Counted from the stretch's first letter, positions 37,460 through 43,416 are shown. The stretch: 64,000 nt of DNA from a virus (IMGVR_UViG_3300017917_001434:25593-89592), one strand, 5' to 3'. Numbers and translations: made by a program. The notes: a model not told the origin generated them from the sequence alone.

Positions 37460-38293
37460 ATGCAAATTACAGCAGGACATATTCGAGCACTTTTCCCAAA
37501 ATACAAATACCCAGAAGATCTAGCAGAAGCCTTAACAGAATCCTTTGACAAATACGAAATCAACACTGTTAACCGTGCTGCTGGTTTCTTAGCACAATGC
37601 GGACATGAAAGTGCCGGATTCACAATCTTACAAGAAAACTTAAACTATTCGGCCGAAGGTTTGAATAAGATATTTAAGAAATACTTCCCAACAGTAGCAG
37701 ACGCACAACCGTATGCTCGCAATCCAGAAAAGATTGCTAACAAGGTCTACGGTGGACGTATGGGCAACGGCCCAGAGTCTAGCGGTGATGGTTACAAATT
37801 CCGTGGCCGTGGTGCTATCCAATTAACTGGCCGTGACAACTACACACAGTTTGCCAAAGCAGTTGGGCTTACAGTAGACGAAGCAGTGGCAGACTTAGAA
37901 ACACTTGACGGTGCTATCGAGTCAGCCTGCTGGTTCTGGAAGAAAAATGGTCTAAACGGTATATGTGATAAAGATGATATCGTTCTAATGACTAAACGTA
38001 TCAACGGTGGTACCATTGGCTTAGATGATCGTAAGAAACATTATGAACATGCTAAACATGTATTAAGTGGACATGTTGAAGAATCACACGGTGTCAACGT
38101 GGTTAATTACGAAACAGTACGTCTAGGTAGCAATAACGACACAGTCAAAGCAGTACAGGCTAAACTAGGACTTGCCGCAGATGGTAAGTTTGGACCAGGA
38201 ACAGAAAAGGCAGTTAAAGCATGGCAAACAGCTAATGGCTTAACCGCAGATGGTATCATGGGACCTAAGAGCCTTGCTAAACTATTAGGATAA
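37460..38293 (+). CDS. endolysin: GH19 domain plus peptidoglycan-binding domain
   Basis: FLAQCGHESAG, FRGRGAIQLTGRDNY, TKRINGG; ADGKFGPGT and ADGIMGPKS binding motifs. Confidence 0.92.
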   Translation: MQITAGHIRALFPKYKYPEDLAEALTESFDKYEINTVNRAAGFLAQCGHESAGFTILQENLNYSAEGLNKIFKKYFPTVADAQPYARNPEKIANKVYGGRMGNGPESSGDGYKFRGRGAIQLTGRDNYTQFAKAVGLTVDEAVADLETLDGAIESACWFWKKNGLNGICDKDDIVLMTKRINGGTIGLDDRKKHYEHAKHVLSGHVEESHGVNVVNYETVRLGSNNDTVKAVQAKLGLAADGKFGPGTEKAVKAWQTANGLTADGIMGPKSLAKLLG

Positions 38294-38296
38294 TCA

Positions 38297-38776
38297 ATGT
38301 TTTTACTACACTTTTTACCAGACAGTTTTCTTCATACTATAATTAATCTTGTGTTGTTTGCAGGCCTAGGTTTAACTGTCGTTGGCTTTTTCTTAGTAGG
38401 TTGGATACCTGGCCTGCGTAATTATAAATCATTAATACAAATCATTGGCGTTGTACTATTAGTGGCAGGTATCTACTGGAAAGGTGGTTATGGTGTTGAA
38501 ATGGAATGGCGTGCTAAGGTTGCTGAACTAGAAGCCAAGGTAAAAGCCGCCGAAGCACAATCAGCAAAAGTAAACACAGTTATCCAAGAAAAAGTTGTTA
38601 CTAAAATTAAACACGTAAAAGATACACAGGTTAAGATACAAAAAGAAATAGTTGAAAAAGAACGTGTAATCAACGGTGAATGCGTAGTACCAGAAGAATT
38701 TGTCAACATACTAAACAAAGCCGCAGAAAAACCTCAACCTGTAGTTGAAGTTAAACCAGGGGAGGTGGCAAAATGA
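38297..38776 (+). CDS. putative inner-membrane spanin (Rz-like)
   Basis: N-terminal TM helices plus coiled coil; follows the endolysin. Confidence 0.65.
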   Translation: MFLLHFLPDSFLHTIINLVLFAGLGLTVVGFFLVGWIPGLRNYKSLIQIIGVVLLVAGIYWKGGYGVEMEWRAKVAELEAKVKAAEAQSAKVNTVIQEKVVTKIKHVKDTQVKIQKEIVEKERVINGECVVPEEFVNILNKAAEKPQPVVEVKPGEVAK

Positions 38777-39033
38777 GATACTTACTAATAGCATTATTAT
38801 TAACCGGTTGTTCAACTCTTGTGCCTACCCGTGCTACTTTCCCAGATGTACCTAAAGAAATTGCTGAAGCATGCCCAGATTTAGAAAAACTTGCCGCAGA
38901 AACAAGTAAGTTAAGCGAAGTTGCTGGTACTGTAACTAAAAACTACAGTAGTTACTATGAATGTCAAGCCAAGCATGAAGCATGGGTTGAGTGGTACAAA
39001 GCACAACGTCAAATACATGAGAGCGTAAAATGA
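38773..39033 (+). CDS. putative outer-membrane spanin lipoprotein (Rz1-like)
   Basis: Lipobox LLTGC; Pro and Cys in the mature part. Confidence 0.7.
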   Translation: MRYLLIALLLTGCSTLVPTRATFPDVPKEIAEACPDLEKLAAETSKLSEVAGTVTKNYSSYYECQAKHEAWVEWYKAQRQIHESVK

Positions 39034-39431
39034 AAAAACTATTAGTTATAAGTCTAGCATTTTTATTAAGTAGTTGTGCTATTGTAGACATCTACCGTCA
39101 GGCTAAGTGGGATAACAACGAATACGCACTAGTTAATGATATACAGACTACTGCTACATTAGGCGCAGATAAATGTGGCACTAACGCGGTTGTTCCCTAT
39201 GTAAACAAAATCTACGAAAAGAGTGTAGAGTTTAAAAACTATTCAGCGGATGTAGATCGCAACAAAGAAACACAAAAAATGTCAGAAGAATTACTAGCTA
39301 TAACTAAAGGCCTAAAAGAGCGTTATAATAGCGGTGATGAACCCAGTCAAAAATACTGCGAACTAAAATTTACAGCTATTGAGACCAGCACAGGTACAAT
39401 TAAAAGAGCATTAGGAGCTAAACCACGATGA
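39030..39431 (+). CDS. second lipoprotein in the lysis cassette
   Basis: Lipobox LLSSC. Confidence 0.7.
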   Translation: MKKLLVISLAFLLSSCAIVDIYRQAKWDNNEYALVNDIQTTATLGADKCGTNAVVPYVNKIYEKSVEFKNYSADVDRNKETQKMSEELLAITKGLKERYNSGDEPSQKYCELKFTAIETSTGTIKRALGAKPR

Positions 39432-39634
39432 GCACACAAAATGAAGTAGTAGCAGAAGCACGTACACTAGAAAATGAATTCAAAGCAGGACGTATCAGTG
39501 CTGCAGAATTAAAAGAATTATTAGAAGACTTAAAGCACAGTAAGGCTATTGTAGCGGCGGCAGGAGATTTAGAAGTTAAAGGTCAACTGTTTGAGCTAAT
39601 TGATGGCATCATCGTTGCTGCAGGTGCTATTTAA
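39428..39634 (+). CDS. hypothetical protein
   Basis: AGGAG SD; coupled ORF. Confidence 0.6.
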   Translation: MSTQNEVVAEARTLENEFKAGRISAAELKELLEDLKHSKAIVAAAGDLEVKGQLFELIDGIIVAAGAI

Positions 39635-39667
39635 TAAATACTATTATAATTACAACTAGGAGCAATT

Positions 39668-39952
39668 ATGACAACTCAAGCACAAAAGAAATCTGAAGAT
39701 TGGATGACCACTAAGTGGCGTCCATTAATGGCTATTACATACATGGCCACAATCTGGTTTGACTTTATTGTAGGACCTATCTTATATAATCTATTACAAT
39801 TTTGGAACCCAGGCCAGGCAGTTACAGCCTATGCCCCAGTTACCTTACAAGGTGGCGGATTATACCACATCTCAATGGGTGCTATTTTAGGTATTGCTGC
39901 GTTTACACGCGGTAAAGAAAAAGTAGCGGAGATTGAAGCGGGAAAACAGTAG
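39668..39952 (+). CDS. holin (GTA 3TM-holin-like), 94-aa short form
   Basis: WMTTKWRPLMAITY...GAILGIAAFTRGKEK; hydrophobic segments; lysis cassette; TAAATA at 39635. Confidence 0.75.
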   Translation: MTTQAQKKSEDWMTTKWRPLMAITYMATIWFDFIVGPILYNLLQFWNPGQAVTAYAPVTLQGGGLYHISMGAILGIAAFTRGKEKVAEIEAGKQ

Positions 39953-39983
39953 GGGCTGGAGACGCCCCAGCAGAAAGTTCTCC
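39940..39983 (+). other. -1 programmed ribosomal frameshift signal
   Basis: G_GGA_AAA in the holin frame, 5-nt spacer, pseudoknot S1 GGGGC/GCCCC and S2 GGAGA/TCTCC. Confidence 0.8.
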
Positions 39984-40176
39984 TGTTTGGTTAGGTCAAC
40001 CTGCGCCAGAGAGTGCTCCACAGGCACAACCTGAAGCACAACCAGCAGCAGAGTTTGAAGCACCTGAAGTTGCAGAAACACAAGCACTTACAGAGGCTCC
40101 AGAAGAAGTAGAAACTGCACAAGCAGTAGAGCCAGCAGAAGATCCAAATCGTCCAAAAAGACGTAAGAAATCTTAA
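39946..40176 (+). CDS. -1 frame extension of the holin (76 aa, P/A/E/Q-rich with basic tail; fusion about 169 aa)
   Basis: Open frame with no ATG/GTG/TTG, closed upstream by TGA at 39934-39936. Confidence 0.75.
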   Translation, partial: TVGAGDAPAESSPVWLGQPAPESAPQAQPEAQPAAEFEAPEVAETQALTEAPEEVETAQAVEPAEDPNRPKRRKKS

Positions 40177-40202
40177 ACTGGTGAAAAATCAGTAGTAAAT
40201 AT

Positions 40203-40242
40203 AAGGGTAAGCATTGACGCTTACCCTTTTTTATTATATAAT
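40203..40242 (+). promoter_or_regulatory. terminator hairpin overlapping the sigma70 promoter of dnaJ
   Basis: AAGGGTAAGC-ATTGAC-GCTTACCCTT-TTTT; TTGACG-N17-TATAAT at 40214-40242. Confidence 0.75.
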
Positions 40243-40251
40243 ATACTTACT

Positions 40252-41076
40252 ATGGCAAATGCGTACGAAACATTGGGTGTGCCTAAAGGGGCATCTGAAG
40301 ATGAAATTAAAAAGGCTTACCGCAGACTAGCGGCCAAGCACCATCCTGATCGTGGAGGAGATACCGCTAAGTTTCAGGAAATACAATCAGCTTACGAAAC
40401 CTTAACTGACCCAGTTAAGCGTCAACAGCATGATAATCCAGGATTTAGTCATTTTGATCAAGGACCGGGTGGATTCCAATTCCATTTTGGGTCAGGCATG
40501 GATCCAAACGATATATTTGCACAATTTTTTCAACAGGCTGGATTTGGACATCCACATAGACAACAGCGTAGAAATAAAGATCTAAGAATCAACATAGCTG
40601 TGGATTTAGCCAGTACTTTAGAAGATCAAGTAAAAACTATCAGTGTTCAGACTACCAAACAGGAAAAGTTTAACATTGATGTTAAAATACCGCGTGGTGT
40701 AAACAACGGTACAACTATTAAGTATTCCGGACAAGGAGATAACTTCTTTGAGAGTTTACCTCGTGGGGATTTGTATGTTATTATTAATGTAATGCCAGAT
40801 CGTAGATTTGATGTCAATGGAATACATCTAGTACACAATCTTGAAATAACTGCTATTGAAGCAATGATAGGCATAGAAAAAGAAGTTGAAGGGCTTGATA
40901 ATACAAAGTATCTTGTTAAAATTCCTCGAGGTTGCCAGTATGGTGCCAAATTTGGCCTACAAGGCAAAGGATTATATCAGATGAATACTAATTATCGCGG
41001 CGATCTAATAGTAAATGTTGTTGTAAAAGTTCCAACATTAACTGATGATCAAATAAAAGTACTTAAAACTCTATAA
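40252..41076 (+). CDS. DnaJ-class (class B/CbpA-like) co-chaperone
   Basis: J-domain with HPD, G/F-rich linker, C-terminal domain, no zinc finger. Confidence 0.9.
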
Positions 41077-41109
41077 TCCATTCTATAAATATTTTTAAAG
41101 GAAAGCATA

Positions 41110-43416
41110 GTGTCATTAAAATCTAATCCTGCAATCGAAGAAATTATCAAGGCGGCGGCTATCTTAGCCACAGAGTATCGTCACCGTTACGTGACCTTGG
41201 AACATCTGTTGATTGCACTGATCGAGTATCCAGAGTTTAAAAAACTTTTAGACGACTACGGTGCTGAGACTGAAAATCTTTTAAAAGATTTATACGAGTA
41301 CACTAGCAAACAAGATCACATTGTAGATTTAACCGAGGAAGAAATTGTGCCACAGAGAACACACAGTCTAGAACGTGTGTTTAACCGAGCATTTACTCAG
41401 GTGTTGTTTACAGCACGTGAAATGATTGAGCCAATTGATTTATACATCAGTATTACCAACGAACAGAACAGTCATGCTGCTTACTTCCTAATCAAGTGGG
41501 GTATTAACCGTAAACAGTTAGTACAATTCTACTCTGAGGAGCACGGCGGAAATGCTAGAACTGTTAACAACACTAAAGATCCAAAGGCAAAACTTGACTA
41601 CGTTAAAAAAGTTTTAAATGAATACTGCACTAACTTAAACAAACAAGTTGAAGATGGAAAAATTGATCCTGTAATTGGCCGTGAATATGAACTAGAAGAA
41701 ATTGCTCAGGTTTTAGCACGTCGTCACAAATCAAACGTACTAATGATTGGTGACCCCGGTGTAGGCAAGACTGCCATTGCCGAAGGATTGGCCTATAAGA
41801 TTGTTAACGGCGAAGTACCTACTTACCTAAAAGAATATATAGTGTACAATCTTGAAATTGGTAGCCTGTTAGCAGGCAGTAAGTACCGAGGTGAATTTGA
41901 AGAGAAACTTAAAGAAGTATTGTTTGCTCTAAGCGAAAAAGGCAAAACAATCCTGTTCATTGATGAAGCACATCAAATGCAGGGCGCAGGCAGTGGATCA
42001 AGTAGTAGTGTAGACTTTGCTAACATGATCAAACCAGCACTGGCTAAAGGTGGTATTAAAGTTATTGCTAGTACTACCTACGAAGAATACACACAGTCAT
42101 TTGAAAAAGATCGTGCTTTAATGCGTAGATTCTATAAGTTATCCATTGACGAACCAAGTCCTGTTGTAGCTAAAGATATTCTACGTGGCTTGAAAGAACA
42201 TTTTGAAAAGTTCCACAATGGTGTTATTACTAACGAAGCTATTGATGCCGCTGTAGACCTAAGTGTACGCTATCAAACAGACAAACGTCTACCAGACAAG
42301 GCCATTGACTTAATTGACATGAGCTGTGCTAGATTAAAGATACACAATGATTCCTGGGTAGTTGATCGTGATCAAATTGTTGAGACCTTAAGTAAGGCTA
42401 CTAAGATTCCAATGGAAAATCTTAACAACAAAGAAACTGCTACAACACTTAACAATCTTGACAGTCTAATTAAAGACAGACTCTATGGTCAGGATACCGC
42501 AGTTGATCAAGTATTAGAAAAAATCTATGTGGCCAAAGCTGGATTAAAAGCACACAATAAACCCGTGGGCAACTTCCTATTCTTAGGTCCCACTGGTACA
42601 GGTAAAACTGAACTATGTAAACTGTTAAGCGAAAACCTTAGCATGAAGTTGTTGCGCTTTGATATGAGCGAATATCAAGAGAAACACAGCATGGCTAAAC
42701 TTATTGGTGCTCCTCCGGGCTACGTAGGTTACGAAGATGGTAACCTAGGCGGCGGCTTGTTAATCAGCGAAGTTGAGCGTAATCCACACAGTATTATCTT
42801 GTTAGATGAAATTGAAAAGGCGCACCCAGACATCAGTAACTTACTGTTACAGATCATGGACGAGGGCACTATCACTGGCAGTAATGGTAAGAAAGCAGAT
42901 TGCCGCCACGCTATTCTAATCTTAACCAGCAACTTGGGTGCTGCAGATAACGAGCGCAACAACATTGGTTTTGGTCGAGACTTGCTTAAAGACGGTCAAG
43001 ACGACAGTGCTGTTAAGAAATTCTTTAAACCAGAATTCCGCAATCGTTTAGATGCTGTGATTAAATTCAACAAACTTGATAAACTGTCAATGAAGAAAAT
43101 TGTTGTTAAGTTTGTCAATGAACTAAATGACCTATTGGGCGAAAAGCATATTAAAGTATATGCCACCGAAGCACTAGTTGATCATTTAGTAGAAGTTGGA
43201 TTTGACCCTGCAATGGGCGCACGTCCACTGGCACGTAAGATAAACGAGATGATTAAAGTACCGTTAAGTAAGAAGATTTTGTTTGAAAATATTCGTGAAG
43301 GCAGCACAGTAACAGTAGGCTATACTAACGAAACTGTTGACTTTACCGTCACTGAACCTAGATTAGAATTATTGGAAAACAAAACTGTTGACGAAAACGG
43401 CTACATCATAGCATAA
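41110..43416 (+). CDS. clpA: ClpA-like AAA+ unfoldase
   Basis: Two Walker A motifs (GDPGVGKT, GPTGTGKT), GAPPGYVG, IGF ClpP-docking loop, no ClpB middle domain; TATAAATA at 41084. Confidence 0.9.
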   Translation: MSLKSNPAIEEIIKAAAILATEYRHRYVTLEHLLIALIEYPEFKKLLDDYGAETENLLKDLYEYTSKQDHIVDLTEEEIVPQRTHSLERVFNRAFTQVLFTAREMIEPIDLYISITNEQNSHAAYFLIKWGINRKQLVQFYSEEHGGNARTVNNTKDPKAKLDYVKKVLNEYCTNLNKQVEDGKIDPVIGREYELEEIAQVLARRHKSNVLMIGDPGVGKTAIAEGLAYKIVNGEVPTYLKEYIVYNLEIGSLLAGSKYRGEFEEKLKEVLFALSEKGKTILFIDEAHQMQGAGSGSSSSVDFANMIKPALAKGGIKVIASTTYEEYTQSFEKDRALMRRFYKLSIDEPSPVVAKDILRGLKEHFEKFHNGVITNEAIDAAVDLSVRYQTDKRLPDKAIDLIDMSCARLKIHNDSWVVDRDQIVETLSKATKIPMENLNNKETATTLNNLDSLIKDRLYGQDTAVDQVLEKIYVAKAGLKAHNKPVGNFLFLGPTGTGKTELCKLLSENLSMKLLRFDMSEYQEKHSMAKLIGAPPGYVGYEDGNLGGGLLISEVERNPHSIILLDEIEKAHPDISNLLLQIMDEGTITGSNGKKADCRHAILILTSNLGAADNERNNIGFGRDLLKDGQDDSAVKKFFKPEFRNRLDAVIKFNKLDKLSMKKIVVKFVNELNDLLGEKHIKVYATEALVDHLVEVGFDPAMGARPLARKINEMIKVPLSKKILFENIREGSTVTVGYTNETVDFTVTEPRLELLENKTVDENGYIIA

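Follow-up and report, generated by a model that had tools for sequence, protein, structure and literature searches.

A holin-like gene in the DNA analyzed here, from an uncultured giant phage of a lake, very probably encodes two proteins, a short form of 94 residues and a long form of 169, the latter made by programmed -1 ribosomal frameshifting. No protein, RNA or reporter data bear on the matter, and the case is one of comparison among related loci. This comparison shows a conserved frameshift signal and a -1 frame that codes for protein and can be entered only via recoding near a slippery heptamer.

Anatomy of the frameshift site

The window, i.e. the whole stretch of 64,000 nucleotides analyzed, comes from an 89.6-kb virus record of IMG/VR. 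The record is estimated to be only about 22% complete, and its origin is therefore taken to be a very large phage. The ORF of the short form (39668-39952; Table 1) ends with GCG GGA AAA CAG TAG, as described in an earlier note on the same DNA, and the in-phase heptamer located there at 39940-46 was confirmed to the base. The arms of both pseudoknot stems were likewise found at the coordinates given in that note, as was the TGA at 39934; the -1 frame of 76 codons is indeed devoid of start codons, and ends shortly before the terminator, the gap being of 27 nt.

Open as of 39937, the -1 frame reaches its TAA at 40174-76 without a single ATG, GTG, TTG, CTG or ATH codon. The extension it would add to the protein (TVGAGDAPAESS...RPKRRKKS; 76 aa) includes 16 Ala, 13 Glu and 12 Pro residues; its first 66 residues carry a net charge of -15, and its final 10 one of +6. 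In the long ORFs of the window, 0.23% of the open off-frame runs reach a length of 76 codons or more. Because such runs are rare, and the association of an open -1 frame with the heptamer recurs in 53 distinct related loci, the arrangement exceeds chance. The Shine-Dalgarno-like GGAG to which the earlier note drew attention is present 8 nt upstream of the heptamer; its position is not conserved among relatives, which feature GGTG at -8, GGAG at -12 or GAGG at -14, or, in 4 of 53 loci, no such tetramer, and it is not included in the signal as defined here.

Table 1. Features of the holin-like gene and its surroundings in the window, and pseudoknot sites in single-frame relatives (numbered within the loci named)
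Feature	Position	Strand	Remarks
Lysis cassette	37460-39634	+	upstream of the holin-like ORF
Shine-Dalgarno AGGAG	39658..39662	+	5 nt before the holin ATG; read from sequence
Zero-frame ORF, short form, 94 aa	39668..39952	+	two predicted membrane helices; holin-like
SD-like GGAG	39928-31	+	8 nt before the heptamer
TGA closing the -1 frame	39934..39936	+	2 codons before the slip site
Slippery heptamer G_GGA_AAA	39940..39946	+	in phase X_XXY_YYZ; first G is the third base of GCG
-1 frame extension, 76 codons + TAA	39946..40176	+	acidic, Pro/Ala-rich
Spacer CAGTA	39947-51	+	between heptamer and pseudoknot
Zero-frame stop TAG, end of short form	39950..39952	+	read from sequence
H-type pseudoknot	39952..39983	+	starts 5 nt past the heptamer; loops of 1, 1 and 10 nt
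Stem 1 GGGGC/GCCCC	39952-56 with 39964-68	+	read from sequence
Stem 2 GGAGA/TCTCC	39958-62 with 39979-83	+	read from sequence
Tail motif S-S-P-V-W-L-G	39976..39996	+	family pattern S.P..P.W[LIV]
Basic C-terminal motif DPNRPKRRKKS	40141..40173	+	conserved
Terminator-like hairpin with T-run	40203..40236	+	27 nt past the -1 ORF stop
L015	1791-1845		stem 2 GGAACA/TGTTCC
L016	1782-1836		stem 2 GGUGC/GCGCC
L019	1788-1842		stem 2 GGUGC/GCAUC
L022	1779-1833		stem 2 GGAGG/CCUUC
L108 group	L108:979-1033		stem 2 GAAGG/CCUUC

The lysis cassette and the identity of the gene

According to the ORF list and to family matches, the cassette opens with a GH19-type endolysin featuring a peptidoglycan-binding domain, followed by an Rz-like i-spanin and by an Rz1/LysC-like o-spanin lipoprotein; a second lipoprotein (133 aa), a 68-aa soluble protein and the holin-like ORF come next. 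The order endolysin, i-spanin, o-spanin, lipoprotein, 68-aa protein, holin-like gene, DnaJ is common to many relatives, and endolysin, spanins and holin-like gene remain adjacent down to 57% core identity. Among frameshift-type loci the core is 75-87% identical, as against 40-60% for the neighbouring spanins. The terminator, with hairpin and T-run at 40203-40228, is placed 3' of the -1 ORF stop, not directly after the stop of the short ORF.

Some features of the neighbourhood are worth recording. The i-spanin-like protein (38297-38776, + strand) apparently has, by eye, two hydrophobic segments ahead of the coiled coil; the usual i-spanin has one N-terminal anchor. The second lipoprotein (39030-39431, + strand; lipobox LLSSC), encoded downstream of the o-spanin and ahead of the 68-aa gene, is kept in many relatives and matched no known family. 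The 68-aa protein (39428-39634, + strand), soluble and helical, is encoded immediately 5' of the holin-like gene in many relatives, the two being called as a single ORF in some contigs (P0040, P0062); no significant family match was found for it, and it could be a lysis regulator. The hairpin region 40203-40242 is terminator-like on either strand, and is overlapped by a strong promoter-like site (TTGACG, 17 nt, TATAAT) preceding the DnaJ gene. DnaJ-like and ClpA/ClpB-like AAA+ genes (40252-43416, + strand) follow the cassette, and the position of DnaJ is kept in many relatives. A distant blastn search of phage GenBank records gave no match to the region.

The membrane helices of the short form are predicted at about residues 20-43 and 62-80; in terms of hydrophobicity, one segment is clear and one weaker. 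In the AlphaFold2 model of a single-frame relative, helices span residues 3-46 and 64-90, and the tail is unstructured and modelled with low confidence. The window protein matches the PHROG family phrog_3427 'holin' (E = 4e-6) and the Pfam family PF11351 (GTA_holin_3TM; E = 2.8e-4), the latter over profile positions 57-96 of 123 only and with a score, 21.8 bits, under the gathering cut-off of 24.8. PF11351 is matched at E <= 1e-3 by 27 of 29 aligned relatives (best value 3.9e-7), and precomputed matches to it are present on many database relatives. The three transmembrane segments of PF11351 are not met, two long helices being predicted instead; met is the criterion of a small membrane protein residing in one cassette with endolysin and spanins. 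The name holin, used in the earlier note, draws support from the PHROG match and from gene order, and lacks that of a Pfam score above the cut-off. Calling the protein the holin is a reasonable inference from gene order and from a Pfam match that stays below threshold, and remains unproven.

The frameshift may be real and the gene may specify a different membrane protein of the lysis cassette, for example a regulator, anchor or superinfection factor, with isoforms unrelated to hole formation. The curated Pfam cut-off missed by the match, the two predicted helices set against three in PF11351, an i-spanin-like neighbour with extra hydrophobic segments and the absence of any functional data for a holin leave room for such a reading; it is nonetheless unlikely, given that the ORFs from endolysin to DnaJ offer no other holin candidate, that the gene matches a PHROG holin family and 27/29 of its relatives PF11351, and that its position beside endolysin and spanins is kept over wide divergence.

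Conservation of the site in related loci

The window's architecture was found in 64 of 160 loci collected from IMG/VR and lake metagenomes; 53 of the 64 are distinct over 630 nt. All 53 carry the heptamer in phase, as G_GGA_AAA (45 loci) or G_GGA_AAG (8 loci). The codon preceding GGA is always NCG, the encoded residue varying among Ala, Ser, Pro and Thr (GCG in 32 loci, TCG in 16, CCG in 4, ACG in 1). NCG codons account for 3-9% of their families, and GGA for 18.5% of glycine codons, in the long ORFs of the window. Since NCG and GGA codons are rare here, it is the nucleotide sequence of the heptamer that is maintained, in spite of codon preference.

The zero frame is closed 7, 10 or 16 nt past the heptamer start in all 53 loci, by TAA (28) or TAG (25), and in the -1 frame a stop is found 1-11 codons ahead of the heptamer. 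As the one frame is closed just upstream and the other stops soon after, the change of frame must take place within a few codons of the heptamer. Neither upstream of the heptamer nor in the first 15 codons of the -1 ORF was an ATG, GTG or TTG found in the 53 loci. Many indels notwithstanding, the complete related loci keep 64-95 codons of the -1 frame free of stops, with the sole exception of L084; the +1 frame is short in frameshift-type loci.

The exceptional locus (L084:970-1024) has a GGGAAAG heptamer and a core 99% identical; GAA has changed to TAA, which leaves a tail of six codons, the remaining frame being intact. L084 may be a natural short-only variant, in which the long form is dispensable, or reflect a contig or assembly error. 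Long +1 or -1 ORFs following the gene in more distant relatives were considered as extensions and rejected, being ordinary downstream genes with their own ATG. Some loci (L024, L025, L038, L044, L110 and L130) fall inside the frameshift clade of the core tree and lack both heptamer and pseudoknot. Their tails are in frame and unrelated, ending ...NARYAE, ...PPRRAK or ...KPVF, which suggests that tail modules are exchanged by recombination.

The downstream pseudoknot

Covariation was analyzed in a gap-free alignment of 42 distinct 55-nt site sequences. Pairing in stem 2 (columns 22-27 with 42-47) amounts to 93% over the 42 sequences, and compensatory double changes occur at three of its pairs (GC in 30 sequences and AU in 12; AU in 29 and GC in 13; CG in 29, AU in 8 and GC in 2). 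None of 500 shuffles matched stem 2 in covariation score or percentage paired, and pairing fell to 28-71% when the 3' partner was slid by 1-3 columns. The helix GGAGA/TCTCC of the window is replaced in relatives by GGAACA/TGTTCC, GAAGA/TCTTC, GAAACA/TGTTTC, GAGGAC/GTCCTT or GAGGG/CCTTC. Stem 1 features an invariant GGG/CCC core and a closing pair which is C-G in the window, U-A in the nearest relatives, U.G elsewhere; its register shifts by one base in part of the family, and it is consistent with pairing and almost free of covariation. The requirement of a downstream structure at a -1 frameshift site is met through the covariation of stem 2.

Across the family the knot starts 4-5 nt past the heptamer, at the short end of the usual range (about 5-9 nt). 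Loops of 1, 1 and 10 nt and a spacer of 4-5 nt suit a compact H-type knot. Folding of 39947-39990 restricted to nested pairs gave -12.8 kcal/mol (z = -0.31), a value unremarkable and uninformative for a pseudoknot, and no significant Rfam match was obtained over 39600-40300. As the single sequence is not outstanding by energy, the case for the pseudoknot is a comparative one. Both arms of stem 2 lie within coding sequence, which formally leaves room for protein-level coupling as the source of the covariation.

Heptamer and knot also bear on the possibility that the frame is changed in transcription. Were RNA polymerase to slip on the A-run of GGGAAAA, some mRNAs would gain or lose one base; both proteins would result, the long form being made from the altered transcripts. 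The run is made of only 4 A residues, of 3 in the 8 loci with GGGAAAG, and known transcriptional slippage, a subject reviewed in PMC5009743, requires longer runs; slippage of this kind moreover leaves unexplained the invariant G before GGA, the strict codon phase, and a conserved knot at the spacing typical of frameshifting, and is very improbable.

The tail as coding sequence

Downstream of the pseudoknot, substitutions between close pairs of loci number 59, 49 and 146 at the first, second and third codon positions of the -1 frame, respectively. Their concentration on third positions indicates that the -1 frame is translated. The Trp residue of the tail motif (Table 1) is nearly invariant among aligned single-frame relatives (W114 in A3), and is also found in frameshift-type tails; the tail ends with D-P-x-R-P-x-R-R-x-K in both frameshift-type loci and single-frame relatives, the end being DPNRPxRRKK in the former, whose acidic, proline-rich tails are otherwise variable.

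In the protein collection 369 relatives were found, which fall into two length classes, of about 91-98 and about 125-165 residues. Members of the short class end with ...AGK, ...SGK or ...PGK, followed by at most 3 residues. Most members of the long class carry in frame with the core a proline/alanine-rich tail with a basic end, e.g. ...DADRPKRRKI; a few calls of this class are N-terminal fusions to the upstream gene instead. Seeding the search with a long form added some 40 single-frame proteins of 170-195 residues, most of which end with DPxRPLRRxK. Because single-frame relatives carry the same tail on the core, the extension is a conserved C-terminal domain, not noise. Neither Pfam nor PHROGs holds a family for the tail.

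That single-frame relatives exist, and that the tail frame of L084 has a premature stop, could be taken to mean that the gene is the decaying remnant of a single-frame gene hit by a frameshift mutation, or an assembly error, only the 94-aa protein being made. Such a reading is hardly tenable: 53 distinct loci would have been broken identically at a perfect heptamer of rare codons, the tail frame has survived many indels without closing, substitutions are concentrated on third positions, and the C-terminal motif has been kept. An assembly error, for its part, cannot recur across independent metagenomes.

No better founded is the notion of the 76-codon frame as a separate small gene, served by a non-standard start or by re-initiation past the holin stop. 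Small phage genes are often overlooked, and coupling of termination and re-initiation is known from the MS2 lysis gene, as far as can be told from its citation in PMC5009743. The -1 ORF of the window is without ATG, GTG, TTG, CTG or ATH, no start is found near its 5' end in the 53 loci, and the frame opens only just before the heptamer; furthermore, tail and membrane core form one polypeptide in relatives, the tail hence acting as a C-terminal domain. An independent gene is thereby reduced to a bare conceivability. Read-through of the stop, or recoding of TAG, can be dismissed, the tail being in the -1 and not in the zero frame and relatives using TAA as often as TAG.

Mirror-image single-frame relatives

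Five distinct single-frame loci retain the pseudoknot, with stem 2 sequences that differ and still pair (Table 1). In these loci G_GGA_AAR is replaced by an in-phase N_NNU_UUU, found 5-6 nt before the knot (G_GGU_UUU in L015, L016 and L019), and the -1-frame codon right after UUU is UAA or UAG. Here a -1 slip would give a protein about as long as the short form of the window, in a dnaX-like manner. At the protein level, F followed by S or N is found at the slip spot in all of the about 40 single-frame relatives, a pattern which fits a constraint UUU-A[GA]Y. In E. coli, U_UU.U followed by a pseudoknot directs weak shifting (PMC4066793).

Given the residues, the chance of T_TTT_AR in four lineages is roughly 0.005, as estimated from the codon usage of the window; the lineages are not clearly independent, and the retention of T_TTT_AR against chance is no more than suggestive. 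In the core tree, frameshift-type and knot-bearing single-frame forms reside in one well-supported clade, and loci outside of it have no knot. The tree, built on 222 columns, is too poorly resolved for counting switches of architecture. The pseudoknot might be a two-way isoform switch, in which a one-base change in the spacer flips the default between short and long form; resting on 5 distinct sequences, the idea is held with somewhat less than even confidence. If true, phages would be selected for both forms, with their ratio inverted between lineages.

Proposed mechanism and significance

Programmed -1 ribosomal frameshifting is favoured because it explains together the heptamer, the nearby change of frame and the covarying pseudoknot. 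Most ribosomes would read GGA AAA CAG and stop at TAG, releasing the 94-residue protein with its two membrane helices. A fraction of them would stall on the pseudoknot that starts 5 nt past the heptamer; tRNA-Gly in the P site and tRNA-Lys in the A site would move back by one base, from GGA_AAA to GGG_AAA, and 76 further codons would be translated in the -1 frame. The product expected is the 169-residue form, in which the same membrane core is followed by a disordered acidic tail with the basic end RPKRRKKS. The motif G_GG.A_AA.R is within the heptamer class most efficient in E. coli, V_VV.A_AA.R (Sharma et al. 2014, PMC4066793). The slip of the ribosome, its stimulation by the pseudoknot and the setting of the ratio of the two forms by frameshifting efficiency are all inferred.

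A -1 frameshift helped by a pseudoknot and giving rise to 94-aa and 169-aa forms had been put forward in the earlier note, which suggested the alignment of homologous loci as a check. The alignment bore the proposal out, the heptamer being found in 53/53 distinct loci, stem 2 covarying and the -1 frame being open in the complete loci except in L084, and further support comes from the conservation of the tail and from its occurrence in single-frame relatives.

The tail of the long form is disordered, acidic and probably cytoplasmic; its location is inferred from the positive-inside rule, which places both ends of the protein in the cytoplasm. That the two forms differ in lysis function, one being for example a holin and the other its inhibitor or timer in the manner of lambda S105/S107, is a guess by analogy. 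A timing role for the long form is a fair guess on the same terms, suggested by the C-terminal charged domain of the lambda holin and by the S105/S107 pair.

Lysis timing determines burst size and fitness of a phage, and known holins set it by dual starts or by separate antiholin genes. The earlier note knew of no described case like the present one, in agreement with full-text literature searches, which retrieved no lysis protein or holin made in two forms by frameshifting. The word holin is absent from a large review of frameshifting published in 2016 (PMC5009743), and a genome announcement mentions, without detail, predicted frameshifts in genes near the holins of Streptomyces phages (PMC9671017). 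Programmed -1 frameshifting, stimulatory pseudoknots and holin isoforms are each known; their combination is new. If true, holin-like isoforms produced by ribosomal frameshifting would be a new control point for lysis, and would add a class of genes to the conserved phage frameshifts, so far tail chaperones, capsid proteins and few others. With a site of 44 nt, natural compensatory variants and lysis time as a read-out, the system is a good test case for the tuning of a timer by isoform ratio. Annotation is also concerned, gene callers reporting a 94-aa ORF followed by about 220 nt that seem empty in dozens of jumbo-phage contigs.

Comparison with known systems

Lambda S105/S107 is, like the pair of forms proposed here, a case of one lysis gene, two membrane-protein forms and a ratio set in translation, the forms differing by charged residues at one end. 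In lambda the difference stems from alternative starts two codons apart and concerns the N-terminus, whereas in the window it would arise by recoding during elongation and add 76 C-terminal residues. The sequences are unrelated, and opposite functions have been shown for the lambda proteins and are only guessed for those of the window.

Frameshifting is tied to a phage lysis function also in the RNA phage MS2 (Kastelein et al. 1982, as cited in PMC5009743). According to that citation, rare frame errors in the coat gene end translation near the start of L, and re-initiation follows; as far as described there, no trans-frame fusion is made in MS2, and phage and protein are of a different kind. 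Transposase genes of the IS3/IS911 family resemble the window in combining a bacterial -1 shift on an A_AAG-type motif with an H-type pseudoknot located some bases further on; elements of this family also use G_GG.A_AA.R motifs (PMC4066793). The shift serves there to fuse OrfA and OrfB into the transposase, with no link to lysis.

E. coli dnaX, the source of tau and gamma, likewise relies on a -1 shift on X_XXA_AAG assisted by stimulators, which are an upstream Shine-Dalgarno sequence and a stem-loop, not a pseudoknot. The shift shortens the dnaX protein and would lengthen that of the window; closer to dnaX would be the mirror-image relatives, in which U_UUU and a stop in the -1 frame would yield a truncated form upon shifting.

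The tail chaperone gene G/GT of lambda (G_GGA_AAG) and its counterparts in tailed phages have the same slippery heptamer, or nearly so. No strong downstream structure is known at the lambda site; in the window a covarying compact H-type pseudoknot follows the heptamer. The extension is a folded T domain in lambda and a disordered tail in the window, and the gene encodes a tail chaperone in the former, a lysis membrane protein in the latter. Common to both are a short product made by default, a C-terminally extended product made, in the window by inference, by a fixed fraction of ribosomes, a -1 ORF without a start, and the conservation of the device across divergent phages.
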